In this document: in pieces, positions 58,251 to 59,249 of the stretch
Layout: the number at the start of each line of letters is the position of its first letter
How positions within the stretch are numbered: the stretch's first letter is position 1
Virus record (IMG/VR): IMGVR_UViG_2563366911_000001
DNA length: 64,000 nucleotides
Reading direction: 5' to 3' (one strand)
Origin: a virus
Taxonomy: Duplodnaviria; Heunggongvirae; Uroviricota; Caudoviricetes
Made by a program: the position numbers and the translations under genes
The notes under the pieces: model-generated
Database searches by the model: none
What the model saw: only the letters and a program-made list of their open reading frames with translations
Told to the model about the DNA's origin: nothing

Positions 58251-59249
58251 TTATCCGTTACCGCGCGACGGTTTCTGCGTGATAAACGTCTCAAGCATCT
58301 TTTCCGCAATTGCCGACCAGGTGTGACACTGGACCTTTTCAGCATTTTTCACGCGATCAACGCGAGCAATAACCTCATCCCAATCAATCCGCGACTTGAT
58401 AACCATATGGTTCACCAAAGCCAGGCGATCTGGCGGAAGGCAATCGGGAGGCGTTAATACCAACGCCCCACACATTGCCGCCTCAAGAACAGTTAATCCA
58501 AGGCTTTCGGGATGCGTAACGATAAAAACGTCACTCTTACGCAATTCAGCTGCAAATTCGGTTGCTGGCACCGGCGTCCGCCTGTATGGAGTTACCGAAA
58601 TATTCCCCGGATCAATGGTAACCAATCCGTCATCAGTCAACGTTCTGGCCTCATACGGAACGGTCAGACGCTGAAGGTTCATAAGGATACTTAAGGAGTG
58701 ATCAAAACCACTAACATCAAATGCAGCGTGGTCTACAAAAATACGCAGAACATCGTCCGTTTTGGTTTCCAGATGGAACAGCTCCTGATTCGCTGCCCAT
58801 CCAACATGTTTGTTAAAGCGATTATGACGTTCTAACCGACCGGGATTATCCAGGTACCGCCAGGTATCATCGCGGACAGTAAAAGTAATATCGACTGGTG
58901 CCGAATCCAGCATAGAACCGTCATATACCTGGGCTACCCATCCAGAGAATCGGCGACACAGTTGCATGCCTATTTCCCTGGGTACCGTAGTAAAATACCT
59001 CAATCCTGGTGCCAAAATGGCCTTCGCAGAACATGCTGTCGCAGCAGTCAACACAGCTTCAACATAATCCTCGGGGCTTTCGACGCCAGGGGAATATGGA
59101 CGATGGTATTGCAATGTTACCCCTGCCTCACTAAAGGCGCAGGCCAGGTTATAAGACCACATTTCCGTATATGTTTTCACATCACTGATGGCTGCAAATT
59201 TTCGCCCAATGATCAGGATGTTCATCGGCTTTTCCTCATTCCATTGCAT
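58251..59249 (-). CDS. GT-B glycosyltransferase (GT1/GT4-like)
   Basis: HPESLGLTVLEAAMCGALVL resembles the E-x7-E GT-B motif; immediately downstream of ban. Confidence 0.5.
   Translation of the reverse strand: MQWNEEKPMNILIIGRKFAAISDVKTYTEMWSYNLACAFSEAGVTLQYHRPYSPGVESPEDYVEAVLTAATACSAKAILAPGLRYFTTVPREIGMQLCRRFSGWVAQVYDGSMLDSAPVDITFTVRDDTWRYLDNPGRLERHNRFNKHVGWAANQELFHLETKTDDVLRIFVDHAAFDVSGFDHSLSILMNLQRLTVPYEARTLTDDGLVTIDPGNISVTPYRRTPVPATEFAAELRKSDVFIVTHPESLGLTVLEAAMCGALVLTPPDCLPPDRLALVNHMVIKSRIDWDEVIARVDRVKNAEKVQCHTWSAIAEKMLETFITQKPSRGNG

Follow-up and report, generated by a model that had tools for sequence, protein, structure and literature searches.

The locus described here raises the question of why the gene for an apparent sugar transferase should lie directly behind a replicative helicase gene in a phage genome, and what its product does. 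The window, the whole 64,000-nucleotide stretch of the virus record IMGVR_UViG_2563366911_000001, belongs to a phage-plasmid of the P1-like (Punavirus) type: the 2.9 kb around the gene shared 98–99% identity with P1, JL22, RCS47, P7, and SJ46, and the larger stretch of 24 kb (40000–64000) gave the same assignment. The open reading frame (ORF) at exactly 58251–59249 on the minus strand encodes 332 amino acids, as an earlier reading of the sequence alone (hereafter the sequence-only reading) had it, overlaps the stop codon of ban, and is P1 dbn (“downstream of ban”), its product being 99% identical to P1 Dbn. Because “function unknown, possible glycosyltransferase” already stands in the P1 GenBank record (AAQ14048), that reading re-discovered an existing annotation from raw sequence; the P7 orthologue is named glt, “putative glycosyltransferase” (AAQ07543), the RCS47 orthologue is a “glycosyltransferase family 4 protein” in RefSeq, and the PHROGs entry, phrog_2518, is of unknown function. 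P1 Dbn, P7 Glt, and the window protein are products of the same gene (97–99.7% protein identity, same place after ban, same convergent gene 5). On its own, dbn is thus an ordinary annotation, to which a useful new functional link is added here: with a probability of roughly 0.6, Dbn is an active, retaining-type glycosyltransferase (GT) of the GT-B fold (GT4-like), and the detachable fourth enzyme of a glycan cassette otherwise formed by PmgO, PmgP, and PmgQ.

Structure prediction placed Dbn among the GT-B enzymes. The AlphaFold2 (AF2) model (predicted local distance difference test score, pLDDT, 87.9; predicted template modeling score, pTM, 0.85) consisted of two Rossmann-like alpha/beta domains with a cleft between them, and its best Foldseek matches in the PDB were GT-B transferases, specifically GlgM, MshA, PimB′, and the glycosyltransferase of phage HY126 (E = 2e-9 to 4e-8). 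The fold prediction that the sequence-only reading had proposed as a check thus returned a GT-B assignment rather than the non-glycosyltransferase Rossmann protein that it had named as the contrary outcome, and its identification of Dbn as a GT-B glycosyltransferase was borne out by the model, the Foldseek matches, and the conserved E-x7-E motif. In structural comparison, Dbn scored 16.5 against WaaB, 15.9 against the T4 DNA alpha-glucosyltransferase, 15.8 against the HY126 DNA glycosyltransferase, 15.1 against WaaG, and 13–14 against GT-B-fold epimerases. Judging from the model, Dbn is a real sugar-transferase-fold protein; among GT-B/GT4-like enzymes it is a divergent newcomer, only 9–15% identical to the GT4 enzymes BshA, MshA, PimA, PimB′, GlgM, WaaG, and WbnH. 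A match of the N-terminal domain to the Rossmann proteins KtrA/YuaA in a PDB sequence-profile search (E = 5e-5) was set aside as generic Rossmann likeness, as whole-fold searches gave GT-B enzymes only.

The sequence-only reading had pointed to a GT1/GT4-like E-x7-E region in the protein. There is only one such motif in Dbn, E248-S-L-G-L-T-V-L-E256 (ESLGLTVLE, residues 248–256; 58482–58508, minus strand, within THPESLGLTVLEAAMCGA), which occupied the canonical strand-loop-helix position of the C-terminal Rossmann domain in the AF2 model and aligned with the MshA motif ESFGLVAME. The bare occurrence of the motif was not significant, as shuffled Dbn sequences averaged about 1.1 such motifs. Its significance lies instead in its conservation: across 100 members of the Dbn family with 22–58% identity, D173, H174, E256, and G261 were invariant, and D110, G150, W151, D183, F242, T245, H246, E248, S249, G251, A258, W290, and W311 were at least 90% conserved. 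A sialyltransferase-type “HP” motif at H246-P247 was considered and dropped since P247 is not conserved (TH[PK]ES). When 1.84 billion representatives were searched exhaustively with a profile, 376 clusters passed E ≤ 1e-3 and 127 of these reached E ≤ 1e-30, compared with just 23 clusters from a word-indexed search, and NCBIfam gave weak partial matches only; at the level of sequence, the Dbn family is compact and distinct from mainstream GT4. Several members of the family are fusions, among them a tandem Dbn-Dbn protein (P0098) and Dbn joined to a class I methyltransferase domain (P0108), and 9 of 11 aligned members (in the range P0110–P0165) carried a mutually alignable C-terminal extension of ∼200 amino acids with no detectable relatives.

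The function proposed for Dbn follows mostly from its company in phages other than P1. When viral contigs were searched with the Dbn alignment, nothing but near-identical P1-like loci came back, which were uninformative as to context; contigs carrying more distant Dbn homologues (47–56% identity) came from phages unlike P1 in their head genes. In these, Dbn lay inside a cassette, defined in this analysis, with the order PmgO-PmgP-(slot)-PmgQ: PmgO-PmgP-X189-Dbn-PmgQ directly ahead of lambda-type terminase, portal, and capsid genes (L003), PmgO-PmgP-Dbn-PmgQ followed by terminase (L089), PmgP-Dbn-PmgQ-PmgO (L088), PmgO-PmgP′-PmgP-Dbn-PmgQ (L178), and PmgO-PmgP-Dbn-PmgQ with overlapping ORFs in the cultured Escherichia coli phage EP_H11 (L180). 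Overlapping cassette ORFs that include Dbn thus occurred in all five of these independent phages, and in phage IME392 the PmgP and Dbn matches were likewise adjacent and overlapping. Among 50,697 phage records, Dbn was found in 22 and PmgP in 27, and every one of the 22 Dbn records also had PmgP; these records span three lineages, namely P1-like phages, EP_H11/IME392, and the Stenotrophomonas jumbo phages CM1 and RAS14. In one protein, P0089, a PmgP-type domain (IVASGPSA…GGNSG…LVGFD) is naturally fused to a Dbn domain. The suggestion of the sequence-only reading that the gene may belong with the transferase operon at 49.7–53.3 kb is therefore its best-supported part, resting on cassette synteny, the 22/22 co-occurrence, and the PmgP fusion. 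Since Dbn lies inside the PmgO-PmgP-PmgQ operon in other phages, it most likely helps to build a sugar chain.

In a survey of 23 PmgP-bearing loci, PmgP and PmgQ were always present and PmgO was detected in 20, and the slot between PmgP and PmgQ held Dbn, a GT-A-like protein of 189 amino acids, FkbM-type or other methyltransferases, or the phosphatase Ppp. Such variation, in which the methyltransferases are of a sugar type, fits a constant core that builds glycans combined with exchangeable enzymes that tailor them. The cassette lay directly after the major capsid gene (L099, L100, L108), the portal gene (L095), or the head-tail connector gene (L111) in HK97-type phages, just ahead of the terminase genes in lambda-type phages (L003, L089), and among small, hypothetical, early-looking ORFs in EP_H11. 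In the GenBank record of EP_H11 (OP688485), the PmgP homologue (L180 6400–7035, plus strand; 211 amino acids; hidden Markov model E = 3e-79) has no coding sequence, and the rest of the cassette is annotated as hypothetical proteins.

The partner proteins also resemble sugar-transferring enzymes. In the window, pmgO (51654–52316, minus strand) encodes an MptE-like/sialyltransferase-like protein (Pfam MptE-like, E = 5.7e-5; phrog_4603 “alpha-2,3-sialyltransferase,” E = 4e-74), and pmgP (51130–51756, minus strand), the counterpart of the gene directly upstream of dbn in other phages, encodes an MptE-like/WaaZ-like protein (Pfam MptE-like, E = 3e-4). The AF2 model of PmgP (pLDDT 90.6) matched MptE HPPK and the sialyltransferases CstI and CstII weakly in Foldseek (best E = 4e-3), and a search against PDB sequences gave no match, so the MptE-like assignment of PmgP rests on several weak but concordant lines. 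PmgQ (49758–50459, minus strand), encoded directly downstream of Dbn in other phages, is a GT8-like GT-A glycosyltransferase by profile and motif, with an invariant DxD (YLDLDTVI), GDQ, and HG-x-P-R-P; its profile matched the Skp1 alpha-galactosyltransferase 6mw5 (GT8-type; E = 3.7e-7), the GT8 protein 5gvv, and glycogenin in the PDB, as well as E. coli WaaJ (E = 4e-7), WaaO, and phrog_1962 “glycosyltransferase.” Between pmgP and pmgQ, the variable slot of P1 is filled by ppp (50456–51148, minus strand), a Ser/Thr phosphatase gene (Pfam Metallophos). The pmgO and pmgP frames overlap by ∼100 nucleotides (51654–51756, minus strand), as annotated in P1; the PHROG match to PmgO begins only at residue 25, and the true pmgO start may thus lie downstream of the annotated one.

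The nearest bacterial relatives of Dbn point in the same direction. Bacterial homologues with 38–52% identity were located in bacterial-type glycosyltransferase clusters, which were full polysaccharide loci wherever enough sequence was available, including Colwellia contigs with KpsM/KpsT/KpsD-type export genes nearby (L086 group), chromosome 3 of Brucella pseudogrignonensis with Wzz/KpsE-like, ABC-2, and ABC genes (L090 group), and the further loci L093, L175/L176, and L177, the last also with a GT92 gene. Other glycosyltransferases lay near the homologue in L086, L090, L093, and L177, and Kps/Wzm-Wzt-type exporters in L086 and L090; a narrow search with the Dbn alignment among species-representative genomes had recovered only three loci. 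In five unrelated bacterial loci, a WaaZ-like MptE gene was found directly upstream of the Dbn homologue, with one or two small ORFs between them in L090–L092 and L177. These neighbors matched E. coli WaaZ, the transferase of the third residue of 3-deoxy-D-manno-oct-2-ulosonic acid (Kdo), in hhalign (probability 97%, E = 9e-12), and matched the PmgP profile weakly but consistently (hhalign 77%, E = 2e-5). Because a WaaZ-like gene adjoins Dbn homologues in bacteria and a PmgP-like gene does so in phages, a WaaZ-like/Dbn-like pair is conserved from polysaccharide loci to phages. The parallel extends to the enzymes of the E. coli lipopolysaccharide (LPS) core, for which the best K-12 Waa matches by class were WaaZ for PmgP, WaaJ/WaaO (GT8) for PmgQ, and WaaG (GT4) for Dbn; this is a family-level likeness (E = 1e-4 to 4e-3 in a 14-protein database), and action on LPS is not implied by the match.

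Its place behind ban (59249–60619, minus strand; DnaB-type replicative helicase in the P1 annotation; Pfam DnaB/DnaB_C, E = 6e-108) says less about dbn. Co-transcription of the two genes, claimed by the sequence-only reading, agrees with the sequence and is well supported at that level, because the ban stop and dbn start codons overlap as TAATG and a terminator-like hairpin follows dbn. This hairpin, AGAAAAGCCCG-aacgc-CGGGCUUUUCU (58204–58230), directly past the dbn stop, has an 11-bp stem followed by U-rich sequence (centroid −17.6 kcal/mol, z = −3.7), lies between dbn and the convergent baseplate gene 5, and is common to both; there is no terminator-like site between ban and dbn, and the P1 record has two predicted internal promoters in the unit as well. 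The ban-dbn adjacency was, however, limited to close P1 relatives: no Ban match was found near Dbn in L003, L004, L088, L089, L178, or L180. In the divergent P1-like contig L004, dbn lies a few kb past pmgS with no Ban match in the 21-kb locus, and in L104, the sequence of which ends 1.4 kb past dbn, it is placed in the same way relative to pmgS. Dbn therefore has no evident role in DNA replication. The gene dnaB adjoining the Dbn homologue in L093 was rejected as support for a helicase link since it belongs to a chromosomal dnaB-alr pair; a GT1/GT4-like/WaaZ-like/Dbn-like cluster (L093 4069–12073) stands immediately upstream of that pair, in an order reversed relative to ban-dbn, and the parallel is probably due to chance.

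In P1-like genomes, dbn has the same orientation as the pmg operon and lies 4.8 kb from pmgL, behind the inverted tail/baseplate block of genes 26, 25, 7, 24, 6, and 5 (53453–58204, plus strand). The ancestral layout would have had dbn in the variable slot between pmgP and pmgQ, which ppp holds in P1-like genomes. In the window, dbn is not in the same operon as pmgL-Q and belongs to the ban operon; the only link shown between the two units there is a C1 operator at each promoter, specifically the bivalent Oban/Op72 (63783–63810; pattern matches with zero and two mismatches) at the promoter of the tRNA-ban-dbn operon and O26/Op82 (53364–53380; from an operator pattern search) in the divergent 26/pmgL promoter region, both annotated in P1.

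From these elements, a tentative pathway may be drawn. Because the cassette carries no sugar-activation genes and all its named hosts are proteobacteria, its enzymes would have to draw on housekeeping nucleotide sugars of the host. The MptE/WaaZ-like PmgO and PmgP would probably use cytidine monophosphate (CMP)-Kdo, proposed because it is the only CMP-sugar common to all Gram-negative hosts of the cassette, and would add ulosonic-acid-type residues, and the retaining enzymes Dbn (GT4-like) and PmgQ (GT8-like) would add hexoses, probably from uridine diphosphate (UDP)- or adenosine diphosphate (ADP)-hexoses. The product would be a short oligosaccharide, built in the cytoplasm on an acceptor other than DNA while the phage grows lytically, and the Dbn step would be next to the PmgP step. 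If the link to the cassette is real, the leading candidate for the acceptor, at somewhat short of even odds, is located at the inner membrane and is either a lipid-linked glycan or the LPS core; it is favored by the closest cellular homologues, the Waa-type enzyme classes, the portability of the cassette across unrelated virions and hosts, and the basic isoelectric points (pI) of PmgO and PmgP (9.3–9.5). The use of the LPS core as receptor by P1 was also counted in favor of such an acceptor. On the same premise, a virion protein is a lesser possibility, and DNA has at most a slight chance.

Several observations weigh against assigning Dbn to an active cassette. Its Pfam Glycos_transf_1 match (PF00534, residues 229–315, E = 1.5e-5) scored 25.0 bits, under the gathering score of 26.4. 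The pair of basic residues that binds the donor diphosphate in canonical GT4 enzymes is not evident in the Dbn sequence, nor was a Gly-rich N-terminal loop seen; where GT4 enzymes usually have G-R, Dbn has, to judge from the sequence, D173-H174 (58728–58733, minus strand), invariant in three alignments and placed by the model where the first strand of its C-terminal domain (residues 168–173) ends, which together with the conserved D183 would fill the region expected for that pair. With D173-H174 in place of the expected basic residue, a role for this dipeptide at the donor site may go along with unusual donor chemistry. Dbn was present in only 5 of the 23 surveyed PmgP-bearing loci, so the core functions in its absence; in P1 itself, dbn and the pmg genes occupy different operons; and since the position of the cassette is not uniform across phages, the acceptor is not settled by position. 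In-frame deletions of dbn, pmgO, pmgP, and pmgQ were constructed by Gonzales et al. (2022), and all four genes are dispensable for plaquing by deletion and by CRISPR interference (CRISPRi), with no phenotype to link them. P7 (AF503408; L002 3252–4250, minus strand) has an in-frame dbn stop at codon 31 (YTEM*AYNL), which explains its shorter annotated product of 287 amino acids with a 134-nucleotide gap after ban, and P7 dbn may be inactive. Given this stop and the dispensability of the genes, any benefit must be conditional. The fold, motif conservation, synteny, fusion, and co-occurrence are observations, and the enzymatic activity of the four proteins, their donors, their order of action, and the acceptor are deductions.

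Other explanations share much of this evidence. The same cassette could act on a structural protein of the virion (capsid, tail, or fiber), O-glycosylated during assembly as in the virions of mycobacteriophages and chloroviruses. The pmg operon is under a late promoter and includes pmgR, required for head completion, the cassette follows capsid, portal, or connector genes or precedes terminase in several phages, and MptE-like Maf proteins as well as several GT8 and small GT-B enzymes (GlyE, Gtf3/GtfC) glycosylate proteins and were among the structural matches. Movement of the cassette among phages with unrelated virion proteins and hosts nevertheless argues for a generic acceptor, the nearest cellular homologues (52% identity) sit in polysaccharide loci, the EP_H11 cassette lies among early-looking ORFs, and no word starting with “glycos” occurs in the text of the paper on P1 virion proteomics; a virion acceptor is thus considered unlikely. 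Far less probable is glycosylation of phage DNA at a hydroxylated or hydroxymethylated base as a protection from restriction, an angle opened by the sequence-only reading, whose suggested check by nucleoside mass spectrometry was aimed at the least probable acceptor. It would explain a place directly after a replication gene, and chains built by several glycosyltransferases on 5-hydroxymethylcytosine (5hmC) are documented; however, P1 DNA is cut by common restriction enzymes, and P1 is not known to have a hydroxymethylase or TET-type enzyme. DNA glycosyltransferases were not the closest structural relatives of Dbn, being outscored by about 24 sugar or lipid transferases of GT4/GT5, the pI of Dbn is on the acidic side (5.6), its bacterial homologues sit in polysaccharide loci, and the homologous cassettes lie in head or late modules with no base-modifying neighbors. 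Gonzales et al. (2022) reported unchanged antirestriction for the 24 deletions in their 29-mutant set that were non-essential; the deletions that they made include those of dbn, pmgO, pmgP, and pmgQ.

Alternatively, Dbn may be a stand-alone moron glycosyltransferase, acting for instance on host LPS or O-antigen, with the pmg link reflecting mere shared ancestry in a mobile cassette. The separate operon 4.8 kb from pmgL, the lack of Dbn in most PmgO/PmgP/PmgQ cassettes, and the LPS-core receptor of P1 would all suit this explanation, which we nonetheless hold to be quite improbable in view of the constant company of PmgP in phage records, the overlapping cassette ORFs in five independent phages, the PmgP-Dbn fusion P0089, and the retention of the WaaZ-like/Dbn-like pairing in bacteria. 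That Dbn is non-catalytic in P1, either as a decaying remnant or as a GT-B-fold protein that does something else (for example, an epimerase-like enzyme or an accessory factor of the helicase), would accord with its non-essentiality, the premature stop in P7, and the sub-threshold Pfam score, and UDP-N-acetylglucosamine 2-epimerases have the same fold. Against decay, Dbn was 97–100% conserved among 20 P1-like phage records and full length in 18 of them, both P7 records having the stop codon, and the motif residues were kept across the 100 homologues; epimerases scored lower than glycosyltransferases, and the adjacency to ban is not conserved. This last explanation therefore seems to have very little in its favor, and an active Dbn working with the PmgO/PmgP/PmgQ cassette is preferred.

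Like mycobacteriophage virion glycosylation, the pathways for glycans on 5hmC and 5-hydroxycytosine (5hoC) in DNA, and GtrABC seroconversion, the P1-type cassette would be a phage-borne set of glycosyltransferases with variable tailoring enzymes, and the HY126 enzyme of the DNA pathways (PDB 9ir0) has a GT4-like fold in common with Dbn. It differs in composition, with two MptE-like, one GT8-like, and one GT4-like protein and without base-modifying partners or Gtr-type membrane proteins. In the searchable literature, neither a functional study of Dbn, PmgO, PmgP, or PmgQ nor a description of the PmgO-PmgP-(Dbn)-PmgQ cassette or its WaaZ-like/Dbn-like bacterial parallel was found. P1 is among the most used phages in genetics, yet these four glycosyltransferase-like proteins have no assigned role; the cassette link gathers four proteins labeled “hypothetical” or “putative morphogenetic” into one pathway that can be tested, and the same cassette is found again in proteobacterial phages of the lambda-like, HK97-like, P1-like, and jumbo kinds. 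A bolder version, which we consider doubtful, is that P1 and many Gram-negative phages carry an unrecognized modular cassette, made up of two WaaZ/sialyltransferase-like enzymes, a GT8-like enzyme, and a swappable Dbn or methyltransferase, that uses only host CMP-Kdo and UDP-sugars to decorate virions with a Kdo glycan or to remodel the LPS core in the course of lytic growth. If true, a paradigm phage would direct glycosylation of a novel kind, and modification of virions or of the LPS receptor would matter for adsorption, for the way in which the immune system recognizes therapeutic phages, and for P1 transduction tools; if nothing is found, dbn stays an ordinary accessory gene.

Some further features of the locus were recorded. 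A GAGGA Shine-Dalgarno sequence precedes both Met1 and Met9 (59225) of dbn; the latter is an alternative conserved start and the start position in most Dbn homologues, and 8 of 80 P1-like contigs matched from residue 9 only. Upstream of ban, tciA-C of reference P1 are replaced in the window by the gene for an SPFH/Band-7 protein (275 amino acids), which together with a hydrophobic ORF of 78 amino acids (61002–62046, minus strand) lies between a tRNA-Thr/Asn pair and the tRNA upstream of ban; reference P1 carries upl, plp, and tciA-tciB-tciC between those tRNA genes, which indicates a cargo swap within the ban operon. That tRNA (60899–60974, minus strand) was called Met (CAT) by ARAGORN and is tRNA-Ile2 in the P1 record, with a lysidine-modified CAT anticodon related to ileX. 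PmgM (52480–53058, minus strand), which was found only at the P1-like loci among those surveyed, had a sub-threshold match to the VRR-NUC nuclease domain (E = 3e-4), an odd neighbor for transferases. The orthologue of P1 pap (47615–48121, minus strand), annotated as an acid phosphatase, matched the HAD phosphatase domain of polynucleotide kinase-phosphatase (PNKP; PF25109, E = 9e-12), which suggests a phosphatase of nucleic-acid ends or phospho-sugars and not a classical acid phosphatase; the idea that pap encodes a lipid phosphatase pointing to LPS was accordingly rejected in favor of a HAD/PNKP-type enzyme.

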